64,000 nt of DNA from a virus. The notes beneath the pieces were generated by a model. The model was given only the letters and a program-made list of their open reading frames with translations. It did no database searches and was not told where the DNA came from. The stretch lies in the IMG/VR virus record IMGVR_UViG_3300020159_002019, positions 1 through 64,000 of that record. One strand, 5' to 3'. Of this stretch, positions 43,206-60,182 are shown piece after piece. Both the position numbers and the translations under genes were made by a program. Each line of letters opens with the position of its first letter. Positions within the stretch are counted from its first letter, which is position 1.

Positions 43206-43994
43206 TTAAAATGGTTCTTCTTCACTCATTACTTCTTCTTCTTCAGATTGGTTTTTTGGTGATGAAACACTTGGAGTTTCTTTCTTCTCATAAGGATTTT
43301 CACCTCTCGCTACTTTTGATAAGTAATCGTAATCTCTTTTACTGAATACATCTTCCCAAGTCATAGTGTCTGATGTCCATTCTGAAATTTGTTCTTCAGT
43401 TCCTAATGGTTCTCTATCATCGTGAATGATTGAACTAACTACTGAATTACCTCTATCATCTTTACCTACGTTGATGATTAAATCTCTACCTTCTGTTGCG
43501 TGTGAAATATCACCTTTTTCAGAAAATACTGCTATCATTTTGTCAAAAACACCAGCACCTTTGTAATTGTGTGGGAATCTCCAAAACTTAACACCTTCAT
43601 CTTCTTTACCTCTTTCAATACCTTTTACGACATAGAACTTTTTAGGTTTGTAAGTTTTAGCTAAATCTTTATCCTCTTTTGAACCCGATTTTTCTAATTC
43701 AGATGCTACTTCACAAAATGGACAAGGATCTCCAGCATTTTTTTCTGGGCAATACAATTTTTTCCATTCCCCATTAACTTGGACATTGTGAAACCACACT
43801 TCTACAAATGGTGATTGTCCTGGTTCTGTTGGAATAATTCTGAATTTCTTTTTGTCTGTAAGTTTACCTTTTGGTAACATTGTTGTGAAGTATTTTGTCA
43901 AATCTACCTCTTTTCTTGGTTTCGCCTTATTGCTTTCGTACTGCTTAAGGATTGCGTCTAATACGCTGTTTTTTGGTTGTGCTTTTGTGCTCAT
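43206..43994 (-). CDS. Single-stranded DNA-binding protein (T4 gp32-like)
   Basis: RIIP, PFVEVWFH, YCP...GDPCPFCE, VKFWRF, GRDLII and an acidic C-tail EEEPF; next to uvsX. Confidence 0.85.
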   Translation of the reverse strand: MSTKAQPKNSVLDAILKQYESNKAKPRKEVDLTKYFTTMLPKGKLTDKKKFRIIPTEPGQSPFVEVWFHNVQVNGEWKKLYCPEKNAGDPCPFCEVASELEKSGSKEDKDLAKTYKPKKFYVVKGIERGKEDEGVKFWRFPHNYKGAGVFDKMIAVFSEKGDISHATEGRDLIINVGKDDRGNSVVSSIIHDDREPLGTEEQISEWTSDTMTWEDVFSKRDYDYLSKVARGENPYEKKETPSVSSPKNQSEEEEVMSEEEPF

Positions 43995-44160
43995 AATATA
44001 TAATTTAATAAAGTTTATAACAACTCTAACGAGTTCGAATTTGTATTATATAAATAGTTAAAATCTATAAAAAGTAACTACTTAGTTTATGTTTTAATAA
44101 TAAGATTTTTATTTTAAAAAACAAACTTTTTAGATTTAATTTATTAATGTATTTATTGAT

Positions 44161-44820
44161 ATGGATAAAAATATAATAAATGAAGTTAAAAGAATCAAAC
44201 AACTTATGAATATAAATGAAGTTGTAATTGATGAAGGTTTTAAAGATTTTATTAGAGTCGCTTCTTTATGTGCAATATTAGCTACAGGTGAAATTTCTTG
44301 TAAAAAAATTGATACTTCTGATATCTCAACAAACCAAGTAACTAAAATTTCTGATTGGTCTAAAATACCACAAGAAGAAATGGAAAAAATGGGGTTTAAA
44401 AGTGTTAATACAATTTCTAATGATACTTTAAAATCCGTTAGAAAATATAACTCAAGACAGCCTTGGGTTGGTATATGGAAATTTACTGAAAATTTTAGAT
44501 CAGCAAATAAAGAATTTTTAATAATATCACCAAATAATTTATTAGATAGAAATAATATTGTCGGTAGTAAAGTATATTGGTGTGCTTGGTCAGATGAAAG
44601 ACAAGTTTATGATATATTCCCATTAAGATTTGTATCTGGCGAAATTTACTATCCCTCAATTCACGATAATAAACCTTATAAGTTTGGATTAAAAGGATAT
44701 TCAAAAAGTAAAAATTTAAACGAATATTTTGAAATTACTTTTTATGGTAAAGATTCTTTAGATATAACTAATTGGATTGCAGGTAAAGCAATAAGAATGG
44801 ATAAATTACCTTATCCATAA
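44161..44820 (+). CDS. Late protein with capsid-targeting-like leader and lipoprotein-like segment
   Basis: MDKNIINEVKRIKQLMNINE...EG, then VASLCAILATGEISCKK; TATTTATT-N3-ATG upstream. Confidence 0.6.
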   Translation: MDKNIINEVKRIKQLMNINEVVIDEGFKDFIRVASLCAILATGEISCKKIDTSDISTNQVTKISDWSKIPQEEMEKMGFKSVNTISNDTLKSVRKYNSRQPWVGIWKFTENFRSANKEFLIISPNNLLDRNNIVGSKVYWCAWSDERQVYDIFPLRFVSGEIYYPSIHDNKPYKFGLKGYSKSKNLNEYFEITFYGKDSLDITNWIAGKAIRMDKLPYP

Positions 44821-44833
44821 TTTATTTTTAGCC

Positions 44834-44841
44834 TATTTATA
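44834..44841 (+). promoter_or_regulatory. Putative late promoter of the envelope operon
   Basis: TATTTATA 35 nt upstream of the ATG at 44877. Confidence 0.55.
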
Positions 44842-44876
44842 GGTAACAAAGAATAAATTAAAAAACAAACCAACAA

Positions 44877-46760
44877 ATGAAAAAAATCCTATCGTTTTTG
44901 GCATTATTATGCCTATCTGTTATTACGTTCGGGCAAACATGCCCAACACCTAACGGAAACTCAATTATTATTAAACCAAATTACACGGTTTCATCTTCAA
45001 TAGCTAACCAAACAGATGTAAAACTTTGCTATAATAATACAACCACAAGTAAAATTACAGCTCTACAATTTAAGATTAGTTATGACACTATTGCTTTTAC
45101 AGAGCCATCGGTTAGATTAGTTATTCCTGATAGTTCAGATTCTTATTTACAGTTCTATGTAAATAAAGGAACAATTACTATATCAACAGTATATGACGGA
45201 TCAAATCTTAATTATACTTACCCTTCAGGTGAGTTATTTAATATAAACTTCAAACATTCAAATCCAAACACATTTCAATATTTAACAGGGATTACATCGT
45301 TGGGGTTTGATAATCAATACCCAACAATAGCATCAACTAATTTAGGTAAAGATACAACATTAAATAAATTTAACGGTGGTGGTATATTTATTAGACCTTC
45401 TATCAATTTCACAGGAACATTTAAAAACGTAACTGGTTCATTCACTAAAAACCTATTAGTAGGTTTATGGAAACAACCTAAATCAGGTGGTAATTGGACA
45501 TTAGTTAATGTTGATACTACTGACTTAAATGGTAAATTCGCATTTAGTCCTATCGTAGATACTACATATTGGACTTGTAAAATAGAAGTTAAAGGTGATA
45601 CGTTATCTTTAGGTAATGTGGTAACAACAGCAGATGCTCAAAAAGTTAATAGATTTGTATTAGGTATTGAAAATCCAAAAAGTTTTGATTTCCATTCATC
45701 AGATCCAAATAATTCAGGTAATATATCTATTTCAGACGTATATACAATCTTTAATAGAATTGCAGGTAGATTTAGTAGTTTTACAACACCTGACGTTAGA
45801 TTTTTTACAGATATTCAATATAACACAATTACGACAGATAGTTTAACTAATCATTCATTAGATATACCAGGAAGTGCTAATTATTCATATACAATTGTAA
45901 CAGGTGTTGATTCAATTACAGTTTATGTATTAGCAACAGGTGACGTAAATGAAACAGGTTTCCGTATGGCTAGATTAGTTCCAATTAAAATAACTAATCC
46001 ATTAAACGCACCTAATTTCATTATAGATCAAACAACTGATTACTACGCTTCATTAAATGAAATGGAAATTAATTTACCGACATTAAAAATTGAAGAGGGT
46101 AATTTAGTTAATATTCCGGTAACAGTTTTAACTAACGGACAAGAATTAGGGGCTGTGCAATTAGCAATGAAATATGATACAGATTTATTAGAGTTTAGAG
46201 GTGTAAAAACCCTAAACTCAACCGCTAAATGGATGTCATTTACAAATCCTAACGATGGTGTAGTTGAATGGGGTGGTGTAGATATGAGCGAACAAAATAA
46301 AGTTAAAGATGGTAATGATGTAGTTGTAATGCAATTTTACGCTAAAAAACCTAAAGATGATTGGAATGGTTCTCCATTATATGTGACTCGTAAATTTGTA
46401 GGTAATTCAACAGCTAAAGATTTAAGTATTAAACCTACTGATGGTAGAGTGGAAGTTCTTAAAACATCTCCAATTGTATCAAGGTTAAATGGTAGTTTAA
46501 ATATATTAGTTTATCCAAACCCTTCAACAGGTATAGTATCAGTTCAATTTAACGTACCTGATAACAATAATACTATGGTTTATTTTATAGATATGATTGG
46601 ACATAAAGTGGCTGAAATAACTAATGGTAAAATGCCAAAAGGTGAATACAGATACACTGCAAATTTAACAGATTTACCAGTTAGTGCTTATACAGCGGTA
46701 GTTGAGTGTGATGGTAAAATAATTGGTAGCGCGAAACTAATAAACGGCGTATTTATGTAG
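44877..46760 (+). CDS. Secreted cohesin-dockerin-cohesin protein with T9SS type A C-terminal sorting domain
   Basis: Sec signal MKKILSFLALLCLSVITFG; cohesin-like ALQFKISYD/GELFNINFK and VNIPV/AVQLAMKYDTDLLEF; dockerin-like TTADA...SDPNNSGNISISDV; CTD VYPNPSTG...IDMIG...KLI. Confidence 0.8.
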   Translation: MKKILSFLALLCLSVITFGQTCPTPNGNSIIIKPNYTVSSSIANQTDVKLCYNNTTTSKITALQFKISYDTIAFTEPSVRLVIPDSSDSYLQFYVNKGTITISTVYDGSNLNYTYPSGELFNINFKHSNPNTFQYLTGITSLGFDNQYPTIASTNLGKDTTLNKFNGGGIFIRPSINFTGTFKNVTGSFTKNLLVGLWKQPKSGGNWTLVNVDTTDLNGKFAFSPIVDTTYWTCKIEVKGDTLSLGNVVTTADAQKVNRFVLGIENPKSFDFHSSDPNNSGNISISDVYTIFNRIAGRFSSFTTPDVRFFTDIQYNTITTDSLTNHSLDIPGSANYSYTIVTGVDSITVYVLATGDVNETGFRMARLVPIKITNPLNAPNFIIDQTTDYYASLNEMEINLPTLKIEEGNLVNIPVTVLTNGQELGAVQLAMKYDTDLLEFRGVKTLNSTAKWMSFTNPNDGVVEWGGVDMSEQNKVKDGNDVVVMQFYAKKPKDDWNGSPLYVTRKFVGNSTAKDLSIKPTDGRVEVLKTSPIVSRLNGSLNILVYPNPSTGIVSVQFNVPDNNNTMVYFIDMIGHKVAEITNGKMPKGEYRYTANLTDLPVSAYTAVVECDGKIIGSAKLINGVFM

Positions 46761-46790
46761 TAGAATAAACATACAAATATAAGAAATATT

Positions 46791-47135
46791 ATGGCAGAAG
46801 AAACAGAAAACACAAACGATGGAACATTGTCAGGTTTAAAGAAAACTATTATTGGTACTCTATCAACAGTAGTACTTGGAGCAGGTACTTGGCTAACAAC
46901 AACATTTTTTAACGGACATTCAGATGATAATGCTGAAACTAAAACAGAACAAGCGGCACCTGCCCCAGCGGCAGCACCTGTTGTAATCAACTTATCAAAC
47001 AATAACGAACAAAAACAACAAAATAATAGTGGTGGTGGAAATACTACAATTATTAAAGAAAGAGTTATAGAAAAACCAGCTCCGGTTAAAGAAGAAAAGA
47101 AAAAAGAAGAACCAAAGGAAGAAGCGCCTTGGTAA
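46791..47135 (+). CDS. Small single-TM protein with disordered tail
   Basis: TIIGTLSTVVLGAGTWLTTTFF followed by a Pro/Ala/Asn/Lys/Glu-rich linker. Confidence 0.7.
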   Translation: MAEETENTNDGTLSGLKKTIIGTLSTVVLGAGTWLTTTFFNGHSDDNAETKTEQAAPAPAAAPVVINLSNNNEQKQQNNSGGGNTTIIKERVIEKPAPVKEEKKKEEPKEEAPW

Positions 47136-47165
47136 TAAATCTTAAATAACGAAAACCAACAAAGA

Positions 47166-47879
47166 ATGAAAACCATAAACCAACAAAGCATAATCAACTT
47201 CATAGTGGCTCTTTTAGGGGCGGCTATGATGTTTGGTTGTGGAACAACTAGAACAGAAAAATACACAGCTGATTTTGAAAAGAAACAATCAATACAAGTA
47301 GTAAGTGATTACGATGGGAAACCAATTCCTGTTCAAGTTCTTTCAATCGGTATTAGTGATAATGTCCTTACCTCATACCCAATTCTTAAAGAAAAAAATG
47401 TAGGATTAGGTGTTACAAATATAGCTTTAGATTACTTAGAAGGCACAAATAGATTCGAGTTTACAGAAGATAAAGAAGAAATCAAACTTAAAATGGTTAA
47501 ACAATTCCAAGCAAGTGCTAAAGGCTTTACTGAAAATAAATTAGATGGTAAAGGTAAAATTAAACTTGCAAAGTATTTTGTTTATATTGAAGTATATGAT
47601 TTTTCAGTAGATGAACAAGAAACCTATACTGCGGGTAAAAAGCAATTAGAAGTAACTACAAGATTAGGTCTACAAATTAGATTTGTTGATGCTGAATCTG
47701 GACAAGTTAGAGTAGGTTCTGGTATGGGTGAAGCAACCCAATACGGTCAATCATTTTTGAAATCTCTTGATATGAAATTTGCGCAGTCAACTGTTGGTAT
47801 TTCGACAAGAAAATCCTTAGAAACAGCTTGTTCAAGGGTGGTATCCAAAATGATTAAAGATGGAATCTTTGAAAAATAA
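47166..47879 (+). CDS. CsgG/HfaB-like outer-membrane lipoprotein
   Basis: Lipobox MFG-C; LEGTNRFEFTE, AKYFVYIEVYDFS and LGLQIRFVDAESGQV resemble the CsgG fold. Confidence 0.72.
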   Translation: MKTINQQSIINFIVALLGAAMMFGCGTTRTEKYTADFEKKQSIQVVSDYDGKPIPVQVLSIGISDNVLTSYPILKEKNVGLGVTNIALDYLEGTNRFEFTEDKEEIKLKMVKQFQASAKGFTENKLDGKGKIKLAKYFVYIEVYDFSVDEQETYTAGKKQLEVTTRLGLQIRFVDAESGQVRVGSGMGEATQYGQSFLKSLDMKFAQSTVGISTRKSLETACSRVVSKMIKDGIFEK

Positions 47880-49107
47880 AATAATTTCTATTATTTTAAT
47901 TTTATTTATGATGAGTGGGTTGAGCGTAAAAGCTCAATCTATTTCATATTCATATGTTGATCCCTGTACTAAAGAAACTAAAAATATTACAGTATCTGGA
48001 TTAAATGGTACTTTACCTATTGTAATGAATTATTATGGGCAAGTAAAAGCATTTACACCAACAGAACTTCAAAACGGAACTTTTGACTCTTGGGCTAATT
48101 CAGTTTATAATGAATATGGTAAAGGAAATCCTTGCGCTCAAATAGGGATTCAAACAATTACAACGAATGTATTAAATGTAACTAATAACGTAGTTAATAA
48201 TGTTGTTTCATTAGGTTCTATGCTAACTTCAATAACATCTTCAGGGGTTAATTCTATACCTACCGATGTAGTATCAACAACCGGAACTGGATCTAATACT
48301 ACCACTTCTAATAATAATTCAGGTGGAGGAAGAACTATAACAGGTGGTAAATCAGAAAAAGGAGTTCAAAGTAAAGAAGAAAAACAAGAAGAGCAAAAAC
48401 AAGAAGAAGTTAAGCAAGAAGAAACTAAACAATCTTCTAATTCTGCCAAATCAACTAGTAAAGCAACCTCAAAATCAGACAAACCGGCTATTATGTTAAC
48501 AGGCGATTTGGTTGGTATGCAATCTGCTTCTGATAATACACAAGACGCTAAAGCTACAACATCATATATTAGAATATCTGGAAATAAAAAGACATCGTTA
48601 GGTGTATCAGCAGATTTTACAATAAATGCTAATATAGGTAATATAACAGTATTTAGATCTTGGATGACACAAAAAACAGCTCGTAAACATATTGATTTAG
48701 TTTCTAATAGTATATCAATATTACCAAACAGCTTTAGCAATACATTAGTATTTATAAGAATAGATAACGTAAAGAAATTCACTGGACTATATGGTGTTGG
48801 GGGTATGTATGGGGCTTTAAACAAAGAACCGCTAACTTCTTTATTAACTCTTGGTGGTGGGATGTATAAAGGACAACTAACTAAAAATGTTGATGCGGTA
48901 TTTATATTAGTGGCTGTATATGTTCCATATATGAAATATTATACTGAAAGTATAATGAAATCAAAACCATTAATACTTCCATTTATGAATATAAACTATA
49001 AAGTAACTAAATCCTTTAGATTTGGATTAACGGCTGGAACCACATATTCGGTAAATGAACAACTAATAAACTATCAAGTATTATTTGGAGCTAAATTAAC
49101 TTTATGA
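47860..49107 (+). CDS. Secreted protein with a probable C-terminal outer-membrane beta-barrel
   Basis: Signal peptide ending VKA-Q, a low-complexity linker, then alternating beta strands ending YQVLFGAKLTL. Confidence 0.6.
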   Translation: MESLKNKIISIILILFMMSGLSVKAQSISYSYVDPCTKETKNITVSGLNGTLPIVMNYYGQVKAFTPTELQNGTFDSWANSVYNEYGKGNPCAQIGIQTITTNVLNVTNNVVNNVVSLGSMLTSITSSGVNSIPTDVVSTTGTGSNTTTSNNNSGGGRTITGGKSEKGVQSKEEKQEEQKQEEVKQEETKQSSNSAKSTSKATSKSDKPAIMLTGDLVGMQSASDNTQDAKATTSYIRISGNKKTSLGVSADFTINANIGNITVFRSWMTQKTARKHIDLVSNSISILPNSFSNTLVFIRIDNVKKFTGLYGVGGMYGALNKEPLTSLLTLGGGMYKGQLTKNVDAVFILVAVYVPYMKYYTESIMKSKPLILPFMNINYKVTKSFRFGLTAGTTYSVNEQLINYQVLFGAKLTL

Positions 49108-50759
49108 GAAAAATATTATTATTTTTACTATTATTATCATCAGTTGTTAAAAGTCAAAACTTTTCTCAGACAGGTAGGGTGTTTGGTATAAATAATGTAG
49201 GAGTATCTAATATAAGAATACAATTTTGGAAACGAACAACATCAGCCCTTACAGGATTCACATCCCAAACAAACTATAATGGACATTCTTATTATCGTTC
49301 AACAACAACTAATACTTGGACAGGCTCTAAATCTACTTGTGAAAGTATGGGAGGACATTTAGTTACGATGTCTAACGCAGCTGAAAATACATTTGTGTTT
49401 GGAACATGGCCTTCAGGATGGTTTGGATATTATCAAGATAAAAGTACTGGGTATTTCTTTTCAGAGCCTTTAGGAGGATTTAGATGGACTGAATTACCTG
49501 TAACAACGAGTTTAGTTGCTAATTATGATATAGCAGATACTAATTCATATAAAACAACATCACCTACGTTAGTTAGGAATACTATTAAAGGAACTAACGC
49601 TACTTTATTTAGTACTCCAACATATACAGCAACATCAGGTAAGTATATGTCATTTAATGGTTCAACACAATATATGATGACTGAAAATCTTGGAAGTTAT
49701 TTTAATTCAGGCGTTGTTAGTTTAATGTTATGGTGTTACCCAACAGATGCCGGTGTATTAGTATCTGAACAAGGACAACCTTCCGTTGATGGTGGTTGGT
49801 TTGATTCTCAAATTGAAATAACTAATGTAAGTGGTTCAACCGGAACATTAAGGTGTGGAACTTGGAGTGGTAGTGGATTACAAAGTGTAAGTACAACAAT
49901 AACATTAAATCAATGGAACTTTATATGTTTAACACATTCAGGAACTCAATTAAAAGGATACTTAAATGGGACAAACTTTAATTCTTTATCTTACGTAAGA
50001 CAATACCCTTCTCAATTATATTATACCTTCGCTTCTAAATGTAATACAAATATGGGTGATGGAACATTTGCTAATGCCAGATTAGGTTCATTTCAAGTAT
50101 CTAATGTTGTATGGACAGATGATGAGGTAAATAGAAGTTATATGTTTAATGCTTATAGATTTGGAGTATATCCATATTCTAATTGGAATAATGGCGAGCC
50201 TAATAATGCAGGAACAGAAGATTATGCTCAGTTCGTAAGTGGTGGTAAATGGAATGACTTACCAAACTCAGCGATGCTTAATTATGTATTGGAATTTGAT
50301 TATATAACATCAAACGGAACTTGGGTTTTAGATACAACAGTATTAACAAATACTAGTGGAGATTATTCGGTTTTAAGAACATCTAACCCTTCTATTGAGT
50401 GGAGAATAATATTAGATACATTATCTATATCATCACCGCAAAGAACTAATGCTTTAGATAATAACAACCTTATATTTAATAAAAGAACTATTAACGGAGC
50501 TGATTATTTTAGATATGATTTAAATACTGATAATAATTTTTCAGTTTCAGATATTTATTTACAAATAAAAAAACGTAGAGGATTGATTTGGACGGTACCA
50601 AATTATAGAATATATACACAAACGGAACATTCTACAATTAGGTTATCAGTCACGGATTTAAGATTAACATATCCGGGAGTTCAAACAACTACAGCGTCAC
50701 CACTAACAAATGGTGGTGTGACTAATTTTTATATATTAAGAACAGGCTATGACAATTAA
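49104..50759 (+). CDS. Secreted C-type lectin / LamG / dockerin-like protein
   Basis: Signal peptide; CTL motifs YNGHSYY, CESMGGHLVT, EPN and WND; LamG LNQWNFICLT...YLNG; dockerin-like YDLNTDNNFSVSDI. Confidence 0.8.
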   Translation: MRKILLFLLLLSSVVKSQNFSQTGRVFGINNVGVSNIRIQFWKRTTSALTGFTSQTNYNGHSYYRSTTTNTWTGSKSTCESMGGHLVTMSNAAENTFVFGTWPSGWFGYYQDKSTGYFFSEPLGGFRWTELPVTTSLVANYDIADTNSYKTTSPTLVRNTIKGTNATLFSTPTYTATSGKYMSFNGSTQYMMTENLGSYFNSGVVSLMLWCYPTDAGVLVSEQGQPSVDGGWFDSQIEITNVSGSTGTLRCGTWSGSGLQSVSTTITLNQWNFICLTHSGTQLKGYLNGTNFNSLSYVRQYPSQLYYTFASKCNTNMGDGTFANARLGSFQVSNVVWTDDEVNRSYMFNAYRFGVYPYSNWNNGEPNNAGTEDYAQFVSGGKWNDLPNSAMLNYVLEFDYITSNGTWVLDTTVLTNTSGDYSVLRTSNPSIEWRIILDTLSISSPQRTNALDNNNLIFNKRTINGADYFRYDLNTDNNFSVSDIYLQIKKRRGLIWTVPNYRIYTQTEHSTIRLSVTDLRLTYPGVQTTTASPLTNGGVTNFYILRTGYDN

Positions 50760-51192
50760 AAGTTTATTATTTGGGTTATTATTCCTTCCATTGTTTTCAT
50801 TTGGACAATGTGTAAAAGTTGATTCAGTTTATAATAAAACTGAAATGAAATCTATTGAAAATAGATCCGTATTATTTGGTATTAAACAAATCACGGAAGA
50901 TCTTTTACAAGATAAAGGTTTTGATATTTGTCAAGACGGATCACCAATATATGTTGAAATAACCTATATTGGATTACCTGAAAATACATTTAGAATTGCT
51001 GGATTTGCCTTACAAAACAAGATTACGGAAATTAAAGTTAAAATAATAAACGGAATTAGAATAATGGAAGGAACTGGAACTTATAAAACATCTACAAATG
51101 CTATGATGCTTGAAATAAATGAAGAAGTTCCATTTAAACAAACAGTCCTATCTAATGCTATTAAATTAGCTTTGATAAACGCTTTGAGGTAA
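50749..51192 (+). CDS. Small secreted protein of the envelope operon
   Basis: Signal peptide ending FSFG-Q; alpha/beta pattern (GIKQITEDLLQDKGF...LSNAIKLAL) loosely reminiscent of a CsgG-type core. Confidence 0.65.
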   Translation: MTIKSLLFGLLFLPLFSFGQCVKVDSVYNKTEMKSIENRSVLFGIKQITEDLLQDKGFDICQDGSPIYVEITYIGLPENTFRIAGFALQNKITEIKVKIINGIRIMEGTGTYKTSTNAMMLEINEEVPFKQTVLSNAIKLALINALR

Positions 51193-53016
51193 TTATTTAT
51201 TATATTTAGCGTCAATCCTTTCAATGATTTCTTCAATCACACCCTTGTTATCAATTACACCATCAATAGCCATATTAATAATGGATCTTTTTTTATCTAA
51301 AACTTCATATACTATCGTATCCACAGTATCGTCAAAAAGTGGAAAATAACAAATAACGTCCTTAGTTTGCCCTATCCTATACGCCCTATCTAATGATTGG
51401 TCAATATTTGCTGGGGTATAATTTAAATCATTTACAATAACAACTTCAGCTGCGGTTAAAGTTAATCCAACACCAGCAGCAACGGTATTACCAATAAACA
51501 ATCTAACATTTGGATTATTTTGAAAATCCTCAACAGCCTTTTGTCTATCCTTTTGACTTGTTTCACCATTAATAACAACACAAATATCTTTATATTCTTC
51601 TCTTAATGTATTAACAACTGAAGTATAATCGGTAAATACAATTACTTTTTTATCCGATTCTAATGAATTATTGATAAGTTCTTTGGTATGCTTTAATTTA
51701 TTTTCGGCAACCCATCTTCTTAAAACAGATAATTCAACTAGTTTTTTAGCATATGAAACATTCTTACCTTGTTCTTCCCTCATTTGAATATATCTTTCAA
51801 CAGATGAATCATAATCAATTTTATCATCATCATCTAATTGTAAGTATATAGGTGAAATAATTTTATCAGGTAAATCTAATACATCTTCTTTTCTTCTTCT
51901 AATTGAAACAGGTTTAATCCTTCTATTTAATTCTTCTAAATTTGAAGCACCATCAGCCTTAATAATTCTTCTACCTTTAATCATCATAGTTTTAGCATTA
52001 CAATAACTATATAGGAATGAATTATAATTGGTTGATAGTGGATGTTCTACCATAGATAATAATGAAAACAAATCCACAGGTTTATTTGTAATTGGTGTTC
52101 CTGTTAAAAACCACCTTTTTTTAATTGTTTTAGCTATTTTTTTAACGTGTTTTGTTCTATTCGAACTTGATGATTTTAAATAATGTGCCTCATCACAAAT
52201 AATCAAATCAAACTGTTCATTTAATATTTGATTATTAACAGCAACCTCATCGTATTCTTGGAACTTGAACTTAGGTTTTTTTTCTTTTTTAGGTTTTTCA
52301 ATTGTATTAAACTTATCTAAGATATCATAATTTATAATTGTCCATTTATTAGGTTTCCATTCTCTTTGAATAATTGATACATTATCAGAATCATCATATA
52401 TAGATATTTCTTTTTTCCAATTTAATTTAAGTGATGCTGGGCATATAACCAATATTTTTTTAGCGTCAGATTCCAAAGCAGCGATAATTGATGAGGCTGT
52501 TTTACCTAAACCTGGTGTATCTAATAATAAGAAATTATCATTTTGTAATAATTTAATAATAGCTTCTTCTTGATGCTTCATAGGAAGCCTTGAAGAGTAT
52601 TTATTCCAATCCACATTTACTTCAGGTATAACCCTAAATAAATCTTCATTTAGTTGAGCTTTTGGTAGCCAAATAAGTTCAGAGTCTCTATTTTTAAATA
52701 ATTTAACTTGGGCGTGATATACCTTTTCTTGTTCCCCAACAATCTTTTCAATTAGGATTTTTTCTATTTGATTAGTAATATTAAATTGTCTCATTAAAGA
52801 GTTCCTAAAGAAATTAGTTAAATCTAAAAACTTATTTACTTCTTTTACTTGAAAATTATGATTATTTATAATATAATTTGCTTGATTTTCAGTTATCGGT
52901 AAGAATGATTTCTTTTCTCTTGTTTTTTTCAATTCCAAGATATAAGGATTATCCCCCACATAACTTTTTAATAAATCTAGAGCTTTAACTTTAGCAATGT
53001 CATTTAATTCTATCAT
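51193..53016 (-). CDS. SNF2-family (SMARCAL1/HARP-like) helicase
   Basis: LDTPGLGKT, ICPASLKLNW, DEAHYLK, LTGTPITN, AAGVGLTLT, QSLDRAYRIGQ. Confidence 0.93.
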   Translation of the reverse strand: MIELNDIAKVKALDLLKSYVGDNPYILELKKTREKKSFLPITENQANYIINNHNFQVKEVNKFLDLTNFFRNSLMRQFNITNQIEKILIEKIVGEQEKVYHAQVKLFKNRDSELIWLPKAQLNEDLFRVIPEVNVDWNKYSSRLPMKHQEEAIIKLLQNDNFLLLDTPGLGKTASSIIAALESDAKKILVICPASLKLNWKKEISIYDDSDNVSIIQREWKPNKWTIINYDILDKFNTIEKPKKEKKPKFKFQEYDEVAVNNQILNEQFDLIICDEAHYLKSSSSNRTKHVKKIAKTIKKRWFLTGTPITNKPVDLFSLLSMVEHPLSTNYNSFLYSYCNAKTMMIKGRRIIKADGASNLEELNRRIKPVSIRRRKEDVLDLPDKIISPIYLQLDDDDKIDYDSSVERYIQMREEQGKNVSYAKKLVELSVLRRWVAENKLKHTKELINNSLESDKKVIVFTDYTSVVNTLREEYKDICVVINGETSQKDRQKAVEDFQNNPNVRLFIGNTVAAGVGLTLTAAEVVIVNDLNYTPANIDQSLDRAYRIGQTKDVICYFPLFDDTVDTIVYEVLDKKRSIINMAIDGVIDNKGVIEEIIERIDAKYNK

Positions 53017-53190: not shown

Positions 53191-53556
53191 ATGGCAAAGC
53201 AAAAATTAGAATTTAATGATGATAGTTTAACATCATTACTTCAAGAAACATATTGTGAAATAGTTGATCAAAGAAATAAGGCTTTAGGATTACTCAACAA
53301 GTATTTAAAGAATGTTGAAGAGAATAGTGATATAGCTATGGTTGGTAAAATCAATAACGAATTATTAAAAGTAATAGACTCTTCAATTGGTAAAAAGATT
53401 GAAGTGGTTAAACTTATGGCTGATATTATGAATAAGAAAGGTAGTATTAAAAATGATGATTCTTCAACAAATCAAATATCAAAAGAACAAAAAGCCGAAA
53501 TGCGTAAATTGGTTAAAGAAATAAAAGAAGGTAAGATAAATATTAGTGGTGAATAA
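53191..53556 (+). CDS. Hypothetical late protein (helical)
   Basis: 121 aa ORF directly after the late motif. Confidence 0.7.
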   Translation: MAKQKLEFNDDSLTSLLQETYCEIVDQRNKALGLLNKYLKNVEENSDIAMVGKINNELLKVIDSSIGKKIEVVKLMADIMNKKGSIKNDDSSTNQISKEQKAEMRKLVKEIKEGKINISGE

Positions 53557-55097
53557 TGGCTAATACCGGACAAGCAGATAAAAAACTTATACTTGATAGA
53601 GTTCAAAACTTTTTAATTACAATTGAGCAATTAAAAAAAGAAAAGCTCGTATTACAATTAACAAATTATTCATTACCTTCATTAAGAATACCTAAAGACG
53701 ATCCATTTGATTTTCTTATGGATTTACTTGGAACAATGAAAGGTAAGAAACAAGCTGTTCAAGAAGTTCTAAATTCAGTATTGGGTAGTATAGATTCAAT
53801 CAATATTAAACTTAAAGAAGGTTTAAAAAAAGTAATTCTTAAATCTTTCTTTTGTAATAATGACTTTGTTGTAAAACCAGAATATACAAATGGTTCAAAT
53901 GATATTGAATTCTCAATATCAAGCATAGATTATTTTTTCTTATTAAAAACTAGTCCATTAGATGATGTAAGTGGGGCTTATGAAATAAATAGTGGATTGA
54001 ATAGATTTATTTATGATACATTAAATGGTTCGGCAGGGACATCATCGTGGCAAGATTTACTAACTAATGTGAGTTTTAATCAATCAACACAAGTTTTAAG
54101 TTTTAGAATAAATCCTAAATATGCGAATCAACCTGTAAGTGTATTTGTAAATGATTATGTAGATTCACTTACTATTATTGATAATGAGTTCTTCAAATCT
54201 TTATTTAGTATCTCTCAAAAACCAAATAAAGAATTACAGAAAAGATTACAATTTTTAAATAAATTGATTAATGATGTAAGAAATGCTTGTGCTCCGACAT
54301 TGAATGATGTGGGTAAAAATAAGACAGAAAAAGAAGCTATATTAGTAGATTTATTAAATAATAAAGGGAAACCTTTAAGTCAAATATTAGCTGAAAGAAT
54401 TGCTAAATACAATGAATATGATACTTTAGCTGATGATTTTACAAATAAAATAAATCAAATTCTTTGTCAGCCCATACAAACACCAATAACAAACCAAACT
54501 GTATTGGATGCTTATAGTCAGATAAATGATGAAATAAACCAATTAAATAGTTTATTAAATGGCATTGATAGTGTATTAAATAATTCATATCAAAATAATG
54601 CTAATGGAACAGGTAATGGTATTGCAACTGGTGGGGATCCAATAACTGATAGCCCTTTTTCTTTACCTACATTAAATATAGATTTCAAGTTAGGTATAAT
54701 AGCTCAAATACCTAATAATATTGCTAGATTATTATTATCCCCAAAGGTAATAATGTTATTTGGTATTTTAACACAATTACAAAATTTACCATGGAATGAA
54801 GGATTTGAAAGTTTTTTACAAAAATTTACAAAATCTTTATTTGATATGATTAAAAGTATTATAACTGAAATATATGATAAGATATATAATTTAGTTGCTG
54901 ATAATATATGGTTGATAATACAAGGTTTAATATTACAAATTGTGGGTGAAAAAACAAAGGCTAGGTTAGCCATAATATTATCCCTAGTGGCCTTATTTGA
55001 TAAATTAAATGGTATTTTAAGTGATATTGATTTCGGTAATTGTAGGTCAATATTGGATGCCTTATTAAAACTAACATCACTATCCAGTCTATTATAA
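53556..55097 (+). CDS. Hypothetical late protein, probably a virion component
   Basis: 513 aa, translationally coupled to the upstream gene, with a hydrophobic helical C-terminus. Confidence 0.65.
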   Translation: MANTGQADKKLILDRVQNFLITIEQLKKEKLVLQLTNYSLPSLRIPKDDPFDFLMDLLGTMKGKKQAVQEVLNSVLGSIDSINIKLKEGLKKVILKSFFCNNDFVVKPEYTNGSNDIEFSISSIDYFFLLKTSPLDDVSGAYEINSGLNRFIYDTLNGSAGTSSWQDLLTNVSFNQSTQVLSFRINPKYANQPVSVFVNDYVDSLTIIDNEFFKSLFSISQKPNKELQKRLQFLNKLINDVRNACAPTLNDVGKNKTEKEAILVDLLNNKGKPLSQILAERIAKYNEYDTLADDFTNKINQILCQPIQTPITNQTVLDAYSQINDEINQLNSLLNGIDSVLNNSYQNNANGTGNGIATGGDPITDSPFSLPTLNIDFKLGIIAQIPNNIARLLLSPKVIMLFGILTQLQNLPWNEGFESFLQKFTKSLFDMIKSIITEIYDKIYNLVADNIWLIIQGLILQIVGEKTKARLAIILSLVALFDKLNGILSDIDFGNCRSILDALLKLTSLSSLL

Positions 55098-55139
55098 TAT
55101 AGATTTTCTTTTTACATTTTTTTTATTATCCTTGTATAT

Positions 55140-55424
55140 ATGGAAAACAAGGAATACGAACACGTAAATCACCCAAACCATTACAATACTTTTAGTAAAG
55201 AAGTTATTGATATGATGGTAGATATTTGGGGTGTTGAAAAAACAATTGCTTTTTGTGAGATGAATGCTTTTAAGTATAAAATGCGTATGGGTGATAAACC
55301 AAATCAACCGTTGGAACAAGATGCTAAGAAAGCTTCTTGGTATATTAATAAAGCAAAAGAACTAAAAAGTAAGTTAGATACTTATGGTGTAATAGAAACA
55401 ATCACGGAGGTAATATATAAATGA
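55140..55424 (+). CDS. DUF3310 (SaV-like) protein
   Basis: VNHPNHY, FCEMNAFKY..R.G.K, QDAKKASWYI. Confidence 0.85.
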   Translation: MENKEYEHVNHPNHYNTFSKEVIDMMVDIWGVEKTIAFCEMNAFKYKMRMGDKPNQPLEQDAKKASWYINKAKELKSKLDTYGVIETITEVIYK

Positions 55425-56101
55425 TAGAATTCGCAAGAACAAATAAGGATGTTATTAAAACCGTATCGGATGAACAATCGGTTATTATTGATAGCATATT
55501 AAAACTTTATATTCCATCTAGACAAATAGATGTAGATCCGACATATTCTAAAGGTAATTTCTATAAGAAAACAATTATACCTGAACCAAAACATAAGTTT
55601 GATTTATACCCACAAACAGAAGATACAATTCAAGCATCTGCCGATAAACTACCATTACCTGATAATTCAGTAAATAGTATAATGTTCGATCCACCATTTG
55701 TTGTTGGGACTCCTAATACTTCTAAAGGTAAAGTGGGCTCAAATATAATATCAAGCAGGTTTGGTTCATTTAAAAATATTGAAGAGCTTTGGAAATTCTA
55801 TGAAGCATCAATTGGTGAATTTTCAAGAATAATAAACGATAATGGTGTTTTAATTGTAAAATGTCAGGATACTATTAGTTCATCAAAACAATACTTATCA
55901 CATATTGAAGTAATTAATTATGGTATAAGACACGGATTCTATTGTAAGGATTTGTTTATTCAAACAACTAAAAATAGGATATTATCAGGTAAGCATAAAG
56001 TTCAGATGCACGCAAGAAAATACCATTGTTATTGGGTTGTTTTCACTAAGGAAAAGAGTAAGGTAAAATATAATAATTTTTGGGATGAAGAACAAAAATG
56101 A
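55421..56101 (+). CDS. Putative DNA amino-methyltransferase
   Basis: DPTYSKGNF (SAM-binding) and IMFDPPF (catalytic). Confidence 0.75.
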   Translation: MIEFARTNKDVIKTVSDEQSVIIDSILKLYIPSRQIDVDPTYSKGNFYKKTIIPEPKHKFDLYPQTEDTIQASADKLPLPDNSVNSIMFDPPFVVGTPNTSKGKVGSNIISSRFGSFKNIEELWKFYEASIGEFSRIINDNGVLIVKCQDTISSSKQYLSHIEVINYGIRHGFYCKDLFIQTTKNRILSGKHKVQMHARKYHCYWVVFTKEKSKVKYNNFWDEEQK

Positions 56102-56336
56102 GATGAATATAAATCATCTAATTAATTCGGTTAATTTTTACTTCACTTTAGATATTTCTAAATCAAAAGAATATTGGGTTGAATTAAAAAGTAGATTAGA
56201 AAAAATATCTTGGAATGAAGAATTAATTAAAATGTATAATAAACCATTTTATGATAAGTATATAAGTAGTGGTTTATTAAGTAAAAAATTTGAGTTTAAA
56301 AATGGTGTTCCTATTAGTTGGGAGGGAGAAATATGA
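56085..56336 (+). CDS. Hypothetical protein
   Basis: 83 aa ORF tiled between the two methyltransferases. Confidence 0.5.
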   Translation: MKNKNEMNINHLINSVNFYFTLDISKSKEYWVELKSRLEKISWNEELIKMYNKPFYDKYISSGLLSKKFEFKNGVPISWEGEI

Positions 56337-57184
56337 GTTTGGAAATAAATAAAATACATAAAGGATTAACGGAAGAGTTAATCAAACAAATGGATGATAA
56401 GTCAATTAATCTTATTGTCACGTCACCTGATTACGCTAACACAGTAAATTATGGTAAAAAAGTTAAATTATATAATGAGAATACTTTCGCTGATTGGTTT
56501 ATACCGGTTATCAAAGATTTTTACAATAAACTAACTGATGATGGTTCATTTATTATGAATATAAATGATAAGGTATCTAATGGTGAGAGAAGTATCTATG
56601 TTATGGATTTGGTTTGTCGTATTGTTAGAGAAACAGATTTCAAGTTATACGATAGATATATTTGGGGTAAGAAAGCCGCTTTACCGACAGGTGGTAATAA
56701 AAGATTAAATGATAGAATTGAATATATCTTTCATTTTGTAAAATCACCAAAAGATTTTTATTGTGATACAAACGCTATTAGAGAACCATATGCGGAAGCT
56801 TCCGTTAAACGATTTGACTATAAAGTAATGGCGAATGATGTTATTGATGAAAATGGTTTAACTGATAACACAAAAAAGAAAAAGGTGAATGTAAATCCTT
56901 TGGGTAAAGTTCCTGGTACATTATTTCAATTCAATACAGCTGCGACTGTAAGAGATGAAAGTTCAGGAAGGCATCCCGCACCATTTAACCCTGAATTACC
57001 TGAGTTTTTTGTTAAATGGCTAACAAAGGAAGGTGATTTAGTTTTAGATCCTTTTAATGGAGTTGCTTCAAGTGGAGTTGCGTCTTACAATAATAATAGA
57101 AACTATATTGGTTTTGATATGAATGAATTATATATTGATATCAGTAAAGAAAGATTGAATAAATTTAATAAATTAGAAGTATGA
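56333..57184 (+). CDS. Beta-class DNA methyltransferase (N4-cytosine/N6-adenine)
   Basis: LIVTSPDY, HPAPF, VLDPFNG, RNYIGFD. Start moved to the ATG at 56333. Confidence 0.88.
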   Translation: MSLEINKIHKGLTEELIKQMDDKSINLIVTSPDYANTVNYGKKVKLYNENTFADWFIPVIKDFYNKLTDDGSFIMNINDKVSNGERSIYVMDLVCRIVRETDFKLYDRYIWGKKAALPTGGNKRLNDRIEYIFHFVKSPKDFYCDTNAIREPYAEASVKRFDYKVMANDVIDENGLTDNTKKKKVNVNPLGKVPGTLFQFNTAATVRDESSGRHPAPFNPELPEFFVKWLTKEGDLVLDPFNGVASSGVASYNNNRNYIGFDMNELYIDISKERLNKFNKLEV

Positions 57185-57441
57185 AAAAATTGTTTATTTG
57201 GACAAAATTTGGATGTCCAGACTGTATTGAAATGAAAGGTATGTTAGATAACGCTAATATTCCTTATGAGGCTTTGGAAAGTGAATTGTATCAAGGGTGG
57301 GATATTGCGGTTAGCGAAACTAAAAGTAATGGAGTACCGCAAGCTGAATTCGAATACCCTGATGGTAGTATTGTAAGGGTTTGGAACGCCGAAACATTGG
57401 ATGAGTTATTACAAAAAATAAAAGATGAATGGGAAAAATAA
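57181..57441 (+). CDS. Glutaredoxin-like protein
   Basis: CPDC active site and GVPQ cis-Pro motif. Confidence 0.85.
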   Translation: MKKLFIWTKFGCPDCIEMKGMLDNANIPYEALESELYQGWDIAVSETKSNGVPQAEFEYPDGSIVRVWNAETLDELLQKIKDEWEK

Positions 57442-57497
57442 TCACTAATTTTAGTAGTAAATATTTTACTTTATTAAATTTTTAGTTATTTATATAT

Positions 57498-57565
57498 TAT
57501 AATTCTTTGTTGGTTTTATAATTAACCCACTTATCCGTAAAAAGATATAGTGGGTTATTTTTTTT
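57498..57565 (+). ncRNA. Candidate late small RNA antisense to envelope-operon translation starts
   Basis: TATTTATA at 57487-57494, no ORF, terminator at 57523-57565. Positions 57502-57517 are the exact reverse complement of 47152-47167. The 5' end is approximate. Confidence 0.5.
57523..57565 (+). terminator. Intrinsic terminator
   Basis: Stem taacccact (57523-57531) / agtgggtta (57549-57557) followed by a T-run. Confidence 0.85.
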
Positions 57566-57576
57566 ATATTTTCATC

Positions 57577-57584
57577 TATTTATA
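57577..57584 (+). promoter_or_regulatory. Putative late promoter TATTTATA
   Basis: TATTTATA-N3-ATG (57588). Confidence 0.7.
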
Positions 57585-57587
57585 TGT

Positions 57588-60182
57588 ATGAGTAAAATTT
57601 TAATCGAAGAAATCAATAGAAATAGAAAAGTGATGGGTATTCAACCCTTAACAGAATCACAAGAATTAGATTTAATATTAGAAGATATTAACAAAGAAGT
57701 ACTAAATGAAGGTTGGTGGGAAACAACTAAATATGCATTATCTAAATTAGGTAGATATAAAGCTAATGGTAAAATCTTGGGTAAAACACAAGAAACAGCT
57801 AAATCTGAAAGTAAGGTTAGGGATTTACTAATGAAAAAAGGTAATGAAATAATCCAACAATTAGATAAAGACATTCGTGGTATAGATCCTGAATTTCCAA
57901 ATAACAAATCAAGAGTATCATTTTTAAGGTGTGTGATATTGGTTTCACAAGCTTATGATTCTATTGTGGCGGCAACTAAATTACCTCCAACAGATCCTAA
58001 GTTTTTACCTATTGATGCCGCCAATCTTATTATTAATGATTTAAGGGAATACGTTAAAAAGTTTTTAGATACTGATTTAAGTGCGGCTTTTAGTATAATG
58101 GATAGTGAAATTATTGATGGTAATTTAATAACTGAAGATGAATTATTAGATGAGGCTGAACCAAGAAGCGCTAAATTATCACAAGCGGGTAAAACAGGTA
58201 AATTCGGCTCAACTAGAATGGATACACTTAAATCAAATAAATTACCTTTATTATTGGCTGGTTTAGGTGTTAGTTTAGGTGGTTTAAGTTGGTTAATGGA
58301 TTCAGTTTGGGGGCAAAGATTCATTGAAGTTCCAACAGAAGAAGAAAAAGTTAAATATTTAAAAAATACTATTGGGACAATACAACCAGGTCAAGGTTTA
58401 ACTCAATGGTTAAATATGTTTGAAGGTACTGGATTAAATCCAAATTCAACCCCACAACAATTTTTAGATGCCGTTACAAAAGTTGGTAATGGTGATTTAG
58501 ATAAAGGTATTGAGGCTTTAACAGAACAAGGTGGTATATTTAGAAACCCTGATGCGGCTAAACAAGTATTAGAACAAATTAAAAATAATCCTGATGGTTA
58601 TAAAAACTTAGGTGAAATGTTTAAAGGGACTTGGGCTGGAACAGGAAAATCTATTGGTGATACATTAGTAACGGTTCCAGGTGCTTCGGTTGTGGAAACA
58701 ATAGCAAAAAAAGTTGCTGTACCTGTATTAAAGAAAGTGTTAGTTAAAACTGCCGCTGGTTCAGCATCTCCAATTATAGGTGCTTTAGGTATTGGTTTGA
58801 TGGCGGCTGGTGCTCTTGTAAAGGGTATGAGAATTAAAGGACAGAAACAATCAAGAGCTAAAACATTAAATGACTTATATCAATCATTGGTAAATTTAGA
58901 ACCAACAGAAGAAAACCCATCATCAGGTATTATTGAAACAGCTGGTGAAGGTGACGCAACAGGTGGTGATCAATCTAAATTGGGCGGTGCGACAGGTGTA
59001 AATATTGAATGTGTAAAAAATTTAATTAAGGCAACGATTCAGTTAAATGAAATGATTAATAAAGGTGTGGTTAAAAATCCGACTAATAAAAATGCTGCTG
59101 GTAGTAAAGGTAATATTAAAGTAGGTCAAGAATATTTATATAATAATAAACCTGTTTTAGTTCTTAATTTAAAAAATCCTGTAAGTAAAGGTTCTGATAA
59201 GAAATGGTTAACAAAAGATGACATTATTGGTAAAGATACTTTAGGTAATAATATGGTTTCTGTTGTATTTAAAAACAAATTAAATGATTATAGTGATATG
59301 AACGCCAGTACGGCTGTCGATATTTCTAAATTAAAACCTATGACTGGTGGTAATAAACCACAACCAACACAACAAAAACAAGGTAGATTCCCTAATTCTA
59401 AGCCTTTAACTCAATCACAATTAAAATCTAGTATTGATTCAGTTGTTCATAATATACTTAGAGAGTTTATTGAATTACAAGAAGCGGGCGCTGCTTGGAA
59501 TACGGCAAATGCTGCTAACGTAACTCAAACAAACGCACCTAAAGGTGGAGCTTTACAAGCCGGAGAAACAGATGCTGTGAATGGTTGGAATAAAGTCGTA
59601 AATGCATTTAAACAAGCCAATGTATCTGCATTAGTTAAACCTATGGAATTATTGGTTAATACTTCAATTTCACAAGGTAAAGATACATTAAAGGCGGCTC
59701 AAGAGGATATGATGCAAATAGGTAATTTAATTATTCAGAATAGAGCAACTATTGGTAAAGTAATTCCATTTGAACAATTAGTAAAAGAAGCTGAAGACCC
59801 TAAAATAACTAGAAGTAGGAATGTTCAAGCAATAGCTAAATCGATATCATTAGTAAGTAGAATTATTATGGCGTATAAAGAAGATATTGGTTTAACAGGT
59901 GCTTATGGTAGTGCTAAAGCCCCTATGAATTTATTTATTCAAGCTTATGATTGTGTAGTTAAAGGTGGTGGTAAATCAGGGGGACAAACAACTCAAGGAG
60001 GGAATCAACCATCACAAGGGGGAAATAACCAAGCAAATCAAGTTGGGGGTAATCAACCTGAAGGAAATGAAGAGGGTGGGACTGAACAATCTGGAGGGGA
60101 AGAAACCTCAAATCAAAAACAAACCGGTGTTGGATTCGATACAAAAGTTAGTGGTTCTATTAGAGGTGATTACTTTAGATAA
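57588..60182 (+). CDS. Large late protein, probable internal-head/ejection protein with two hydrophobic segments
   Basis: Leader MSKILIEEINR...LTE...VLNEG; hydrophobic LPLLLAGLGVSLGGLSWLM and IIGALGIGLMAAGALV; Gly/Gln-rich tail. Confidence 0.6.
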   Translation: MSKILIEEINRNRKVMGIQPLTESQELDLILEDINKEVLNEGWWETTKYALSKLGRYKANGKILGKTQETAKSESKVRDLLMKKGNEIIQQLDKDIRGIDPEFPNNKSRVSFLRCVILVSQAYDSIVAATKLPPTDPKFLPIDAANLIINDLREYVKKFLDTDLSAAFSIMDSEIIDGNLITEDELLDEAEPRSAKLSQAGKTGKFGSTRMDTLKSNKLPLLLAGLGVSLGGLSWLMDSVWGQRFIEVPTEEEKVKYLKNTIGTIQPGQGLTQWLNMFEGTGLNPNSTPQQFLDAVTKVGNGDLDKGIEALTEQGGIFRNPDAAKQVLEQIKNNPDGYKNLGEMFKGTWAGTGKSIGDTLVTVPGASVVETIAKKVAVPVLKKVLVKTAAGSASPIIGALGIGLMAAGALVKGMRIKGQKQSRAKTLNDLYQSLVNLEPTEENPSSGIIETAGEGDATGGDQSKLGGATGVNIECVKNLIKATIQLNEMINKGVVKNPTNKNAAGSKGNIKVGQEYLYNNKPVLVLNLKNPVSKGSDKKWLTKDDIIGKDTLGNNMVSVVFKNKLNDYSDMNASTAVDISKLKPMTGGNKPQPTQQKQGRFPNSKPLTQSQLKSSIDSVVHNILREFIELQEAGAAWNTANAANVTQTNAPKGGALQAGETDAVNGWNKVVNAFKQANVSALVKPMELLVNTSISQGKDTLKAAQEDMMQIGNLIIQNRATIGKVIPFEQLVKEAEDPKITRSRNVQAIAKSISLVSRIIMAYKEDIGLTGAYGSAKAPMNLFIQAYDCVVKGGGKSGGQTTQGGNQPSQGGNNQANQVGGNQPEGNEEGGTEQSGGEETSNQKQTGVGFDTKVSGSIRGDYFR

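Follow-up and report, generated by a model that had tools for sequence, protein, structure and literature searches.

The window analysed here comprises the first 64 kb (64,000 nucleotides) of a 109-kb virus record and has a GC content of 28.9%. Since these 109 kb are estimated to represent only about 34% of the genome, the record belongs to a jumbo phage. One protein of the operon considered below as a target combines a cohesin domain with a T9SS C-terminal sorting domain, and this points to a host among the Bacteroidota. Plus-strand genes are tightly packed from 53191 to 57441, and this operon ends with a glutaredoxin-like gene (57181-57441), whose homologues P0007-P0009 were retrieved in a protein search at 71-81% identity. 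A spacer of 146 nt separates the glutaredoxin-like gene from an 864-aa gene on the same strand (57588-60182), and no ORF was found on either strand between 57442 and 57587. The 864-aa gene is preceded by its own promoter motif, which together with the ATG (57577-57590, plus strand) is invariant in all relatives, so that this downstream gene is independent of any promoter serving the element described here. In the L340 lineage, the N-terminus of the 864-aa counterpart (L340:10391-10480, compared with 57588-57700 of the window) is unrelated, while the promoter motif and the ATG context are identical; this looks like a modular replacement directly after the conserved promoter.

The spacer houses an element, situated in the 3′ UTR of the glutaredoxin-like gene, in which the following succeed one another on the plus strand: a promoter-like motif (TATTTATA in the window; 57486-57494), a 16-nt candidate seed complementary to the start region of a CsgG-like gene (57502-57517), a terminator hairpin (57523-57557; −17.3 kcal/mol, z −3.8) and eight T forming an intrinsic terminator tail (57558-57565). 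A preliminary description of this DNA had reported a late motif at 57487 followed by an ORF-free stretch and a strong terminator, and our analysis bears this out, with TATTTATA at 57487-57494. The stem-loop is stable and contains G+C, the U-run comes directly after it, and both lie at the end of a co-directional operon, as is characteristic of intrinsic terminators. The same structure closes the upstream operon (53191-57441), no further terminator being present before 57588. A simple consensus terminator scan missed the hairpin at 57523-57557, probably owing to its bulged stem. In every fold computed, the seed was located outside the terminator stem; it was predicted to be fully unpaired in L340 and to lie partly inside a weak AU hairpin in the window, in L018 and in L001. 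A search of Rfam 15 revealed no family on the element, the only two matches in 57000-58000 being at chance level and neither of them overlapping it. A TATAAT at 57498-57503, which as a −10 box would truncate the seed, was rejected because its bases are not kept in L340.

The operon to which the seed is complementary begins with a gene encoding the cohesin and T9SS-tail protein (44877-46760, plus strand, ATG at 44877) and includes a gene for a 237-aa CsgG-like lipoprotein (47166-47879, plus strand, ATG at 47166-47168). The label "CsgG-like" derives from language-model neighbours in CsgG/LpoB clusters, which constitute a lead only; Pfam and PDB sequence searches give no support for it. Inspection of the sequence confirmed that 57502-57517 is the exact reverse complement of 47152-47167, across the ATG of the CsgG-like gene, as had been described. 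With the element and the gene both on the plus strand, an RNA from the element would be antisense to the CsgG-like mRNA, at a regulatory position. This primary predicted target (47152-47167, plus strand) covers nucleotides −14 to +2 of the gene with 16 contiguous pairs, and its duplex is the best among 110 start regions in the 109-kb record (−20.9 kcal/mol). The second-best duplex (−16.3 kcal/mol, from +7 to +26, G-U pairs included) falls beyond the window, in the start region of a 139-aa gene at G000 76049, and is probably due to chance.

Three shorter plus-strand matches, also listed in the preliminary description, were all found at the places given there. The first is a 12-nt reverse-complement match in codons 4-8 of the CsgG-like gene (47177-47188), of which 11-12 nt are kept in close relatives and 11 nt in the L010 to L014 group. 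The second, of 11 nt, adjoins the ATG of the first gene (44867-44877; −14.3 kcal/mol, third best of the 110 start regions) and is kept in relatives, including L017, where it is shifted by 1 nt and still measures 11 nt. The third, of 10 nt (44845-44854), comes 3 nt after a copy of the motif at 44834-44841, at a position where the operon mRNA probably has its 5′ end. Over the two strands of the record (109 kb), 36 matches of at least 10 nt to the seed region were counted, four of which fall in two start regions of one operon; the record as a whole contains the full 16-mer twice. An A/C-rich 11-12-mer is present three times (44867-44877, 47153-47164 and 47177-47188) in the start regions of two genes of that operon; apart from any small RNA, it could be an unstructured, translation-enhancing leader element.

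The chance expectation for such a match was derived from shuffled sequences and from intergenic 28-mers. Exact inverted 16-mer pairs numbered 14-15 in the window, versus 11.0 ± 3.8 in order-1 and 14.4 ± 4.9 in order-3 Markov shuffles, so that an exact inverted 16-mer is ordinary in this DNA. Direct 16-mer repeats are in tenfold excess in the window, which is accounted for by a 2025-aa gene (29952-36029) containing dozens of degenerate 45-nt (15-residue, Gly-rich) repeats. Among GC-matched AT-rich intergenic 28-mers, 1.6% reached −20.9 kcal/mol or lower with one of the 110 start regions, which means that a few pairs of this quality are expected per genome. The chance of about 1e-9 per site proposed in the preliminary description ignored the number of possible pairs and is contradicted by both the shuffles and the 28-mer trials. 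These figures are those expected if nothing regulatory were present and the 16-mer were one of about a dozen chance pairs, the hairpin being simply the terminator that the operon 53191-57441 needs anyway, and TATTTATA a chance AT-rich word, as the 10 copies of this 8-mer without gene context on the minus strand of the window would allow. Judged from the sequences compared here, however, the match exceeds chance through its position and its conservation, not through its length.

Relatives were collected by protein-anchored IMG/VR searches, and the element was recovered in six lineages (the window; L001/L004/L177; L002/L003/L013/L014; L005/L016; L018; L340/L335). In the adjacent gene, 13-28% of synonymous third positions differ between distinct lineages, as against 9% between the near-identical L001 and L004, and the spacer itself shows many substitutions and indels across lineages. 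Analysis of the six-lineage alignment revealed that the longest invariant run among its 135 spacer columns is 16 nt long and corresponds exactly to 57502-57517 (permutation p 1.5e-5 when the invariant columns were shuffled). The boundaries of this run are set by L340/L335, the most diverged lineage, in which both flanks and the hairpin sequence are changed and the stretch from the upstream motif to the seed is shorter by three bases, with the 16 nt intact. The conserved unit is thus the complementary 16-mer itself, and the TATAAT is not part of it. A hairpin of other sequence but of the same position and strength is present in L340 (−21.6 kcal/mol, z −4.9) and in L018. Every lineage shows motif, seed, hairpin and U-run one after another in this order, and in each of them the hairpin still folds despite its changed sequence.

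The accessible seed is the best-conserved part of the element. For termination alone, no invariant single-stranded stretch of 16 nt is needed before the hairpin, and the run observed here is highly non-random, coincides with the complement of a start region and lies between flanks that diverge freely, which makes a purely incidental origin of the match quite improbable. Beyond these relatives, a metagenome scan with a 16-base hairpin pattern retrieved L177 as the sole true element among the matches listed, the others being due to chance, and a viral scan with a 15-base seed pattern gave 117 matches, all of them chance or unrelated except the known target site on the contig of L017.

Analysis of the pairing within each lineage showed that the element and its own start region form 15-17 bp (−19.5 to −22.7 kcal/mol) in all six of the lineages in which both loci are readable. 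All close relatives keep the site at 47152-47167, apart from one change each in L009 and L019. The change in L019, from C to T, retains a G-U pair; that in L009, from G to A, would produce a mismatch, but the L009 element lies off the contig. At the edges of the duplex, a 1-nt deletion in the window target adds one pair, a 3-nt insertion in the L017/L018 target lengthens the pairing towards the AUG, and the altered 3′ flank of the L340 RNA adds one G-U and one G-C pair. Since the seed never varies, these edge changes fit selection for pairing but are not covariation, and no compensatory double change was seen across the six lineages. Of the two signs that the preliminary description had proposed looking for in relatives carrying the operon, the conserved complementarity was therefore found in six lineages, whereas covariation was absent and the seed invariant. 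Constraint is weaker on the target side than on the seed, as is usual when one seed serves several sites.

The fact that both full copies are conserved also suits the alternative named in the preliminary description, a 16-mer acting as a DNA site for a sequence-specific protein, for instance a phage regulator, with half-sites near the operon promoter and no pairing involved. The orientation of the copies is irrelevant to such a site, and at 44845 and 57502 the motif lies 3-7 nt downstream of TATTTATA, an operator-like position. The copy at 47152, however, is placed on an internal start codon with no promoter motif nearby, the full copies in 109 kb are two only, and their sequence is devoid of dyad symmetry. 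Protein binding would moreover leave unexplained both the fixed order of seed, hairpin and U-run and the antisense arrangement of the strands, and the target has accepted two single changes, of which one leaves an RNA pair in place. We consider a protein-binding site improbable for these reasons. Two identical sequences in inverted orientation could also serve as crossover sites at which a site-specific invertase flips the intervening 10.3 kb, in the manner of the Mu G and P1 C segments. This is scarcely credible here: a single orientation is found in all contigs of all lineages, the identity ends sharply at 16 nt between dissimilar flanks, and inversion would cut the CsgG-like gene from its start context.

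One close relative, L338, keeps the element and lacks the cassette of ~44.0-51.2 kb: neither the syntenic site nor the rest of its 67-kb contig carries it. At L338:3658-3954, the homologues of the flanking genes 43206-43994 and 51193-53016 are adjacent and the cassette (~44000-51192 in the window) is gone. The missing genes encode a 219-aa protein, the cohesin and T9SS scaffold, a small membrane protein, the CsgG-like lipoprotein, a 415-aa protein, a lectin and a 147-aa protein. On this comparison, the surface-display operon behaves as an accessory, insertable cassette. A relative that is free of the cassette but keeps the element would suit a functional RNA with another real target, be it a host mRNA, a phage gene beyond the 109 kb or the 3′ UTR itself as a cis-acting element, the match to 47152-47167 then being incidental. 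However, L338 is diverged by only ~3% from L001, which bears the cassette (the L001 contig ends inside it), so that the seed would be unchanged by chance anyway and its retention is weak counter-evidence to a target in the cassette. Matches of such length and energy do arise by chance in this genome, and, with the record at ~34% of the genome, the other two thirds and the host lay outside the target search. An unrelated target nevertheless does not predict a conserved block that ends at the boundaries of the complementarity on both sides; nor does it predict the three further sites in the start regions of the same operon or the persistence of pairing in six lineages, and we consider it unlikely.

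In distant relatives carrying the operon, whose CsgG-like proteins are 55-89% identical, the start regions are unrelated and carry no target motif, and the longest antisense match within their loci was 9-13 nt, which is the chance level, no similar antisense element being found within 10 kb. The L021 to L026 records, including a complete 197-kb genome, gave no match to the 864-aa protein, the glutaredoxin-like gene or the element, in searches that had no positive control. The absence of motif and element from these relatives indicates that the seed-target pair is young and clade-restricted.

To describe how an RNA carrying the seed may arise, the upstream motif has to be considered in its wider context. 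TATTTATA is found exactly 3 nt before the ATG of seven plus-strand genes (26237, 27672, 29941, 36033, 53180, 57577 and 62016) and also at 44834-44841, 35 nt before the surface-display operon. When relatives were compared at the first gene of the target operon, the sequences proved unrelated up to the motif and conserved beyond it, through the 35-nt leader. On this positional evidence, TATTTATA is probably a phage promoter, often giving leaderless or near-leaderless mRNAs. A literature search for this 8-mer as a phage promoter found nothing relevant. The host-type Bacteroidota −7 box (TAnnTTTG) was also considered and set aside, as the sequence does not fit it. Beyond the window, at G000 77659-86724, ARAGORN predicted 27 tRNA genes in three arrays, and a copy of TATTTATA at G000 80359 stops 1 nt short of where a tRNA-Thr is predicted to begin.

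At the element, seven of the eight positions 57486-57493 are invariant in the six-lineage alignment, and position 57494 varies as well. In four of the six lineages, TATATATA or TATATATT stands before the element instead of TATTTATA: A replaces the fourth base in four lineages and T the last base in one, while the copies at protein genes are strict. The variant motif of the element was not found 3 nt before any ATG in the record. The distance from motif to seed is 7 nt in the window and 4 nt in L340. The "late motif" of the preliminary description is thus present in the window, but it is not strictly conserved, one or two positions being different in four of the six lineages. The element may have a weaker promoter of the TATTTATA class, as its degenerate motif would suggest; alternatively, the RNA may be the 3′ end of the upstream operon mRNA, either processed out or acting within that mRNA. 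With both origins, the seed would be present in an RNA that ends at the terminator 57523-57565.

We therefore favor, with a probability of roughly 0.55, a reading of these sequences in which the start codon of the CsgG-like gene would be occluded by a trans-acting antisense RNA of ~65 nt or by the upstream operon mRNA with its 3′ end. The proposal of the preliminary description, that a phage small RNA tunes the envelope operon, agrees with the anatomy of the element, the conserved seed and the kept pairing; its chance estimate did not hold, the motif is not strictly conserved and no compensatory substitution was seen. We infer that an RNA of ~60-70 nt would start a few bases after the motif 57486-57494, or be released from the 3′ UTR of the upstream operon, and would end at the intrinsic terminator. 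Its 5′ part (57502-57517) would pair with nucleotides −14 to +2 of the CsgG-like mRNA, forming a duplex of 15-17 bp over the start codon. This duplex would block initiation, and the yield of the envelope protein would fall relative to that of its operon neighbours.

Bacteroidota mRNAs have no Shine-Dalgarno sequences and require an unstructured start region, and for this reason a duplex over the start codon should block initiation. The CsgG-like gene needs de novo initiation, because a spacer of 30 nt follows the preceding gene. In Flavobacterium, translation is described as being tuned by mRNA structure near the start codon (PMC6847099). The weaker sites of 10-12 nt, at the operon 5′ end, at the start codon of its first gene and within codons 4-8 of the CsgG-like gene, suggest that the RNA may damp the whole cassette. 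Its likely purpose, which is speculation on our part, would be to hold down the amount of a channel-type envelope protein compared with the other products of the operon. A more specific version, to which we would give somewhat less than an even chance, is that of a dedicated, chaperone-independent antisense small RNA with an invariant 16-nt seed, which would restrain, via four sites in one operon, the accessory surface-display cassette with its cohesin and T9SS scaffold, its CsgG-like channel lipoprotein and its lectin.

Base-pairing RNAs of phages are mostly known from temperate coliphages and prophages. Among them, the c4 antisense RNA of P1 and P7 blocks translation of another phage gene by pairing in trans with its ribosome-binding region; it acts in temperate-phage immunity, pairs through two short seeds and is processed out of the very transcript on which its target lies. 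The candidate resembles c4 in that it would be a phage-encoded small RNA pairing in trans with a start region. It differs from c4 in that 10 kb separate it from its target, in that it forms a unit of its own in a jumbo phage and in having a single 16-nt seed; the two RNAs are unrelated in sequence. The c4-type arrangement, upstream of the target and on the same transcript, was not found at this locus: element and target belong to different operons, and the element lies downstream.

The host-encoded enterobacterial RNAs of the MicA, RybB and OmrA/B type, which repress envelope proteins, depend on Hfq and form shorter, imperfect pairings. The candidate shares with them a seed near the 5′ end, a Rho-independent terminator, targets in the start regions of mRNAs for outer-membrane proteins or lipoproteins and a seed that is more conserved than a single target. 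To our knowledge, Bacteroidota are generally without Hfq, and a perfect duplex of 15-17 bp may need no chaperone. Small RNAs of the DapZ and CpxQ type are derived from 3′ UTRs and use the terminator of the upstream mRNA. The candidate is similar to these as well, being located in the 3′ UTR of the glutaredoxin-like gene with the operon terminator, where an internal promoter or processing is possible.

In the giant Pseudomonas phages 201phi2-1 and phiKZ, ONT-cappable-seq revealed short promoter-to-terminator small RNAs with no known targets (PMC11512511). The likeness to these RNAs lies in the giant phages themselves, in a terminator close after the start site, in an intergenic or 5′ UTR location near structural genes and in conservation among related phages (PMC11512511). 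In contrast to them, the candidate has a specific and conserved predicted target, was read from sequence only and belongs to another phage group and another host phylum. In the lytic cycle of lambda, the base-pairing small RNA PreS/LPR1 acts on host mRNAs (dnaN) and enhances translation (bioRxiv 10.1101/2024.10.31.621285), whereas the candidate is predicted to repress a gene of the phage.

The small transcripts reported so far from giant phages are all without assigned targets (PMC11512511), and full-text literature searches that were not aimed at the Bacteroidota found no base-pairing RNAs of phages from that phylum. The specific and conserved seed-target pair described here is a directly testable candidate, and even in the case that no such RNA is produced, the invariant 16-mer points to a regulatory site common to two loci. 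If our reading is true, an envelope-remodelling cassette of a lytic giant phage would be under post-transcriptional control. The more specific version, if true, would also provide the first phage small RNA-target pair in Bacteroidota, in which an RNA of the core genome polices a mobile cassette.
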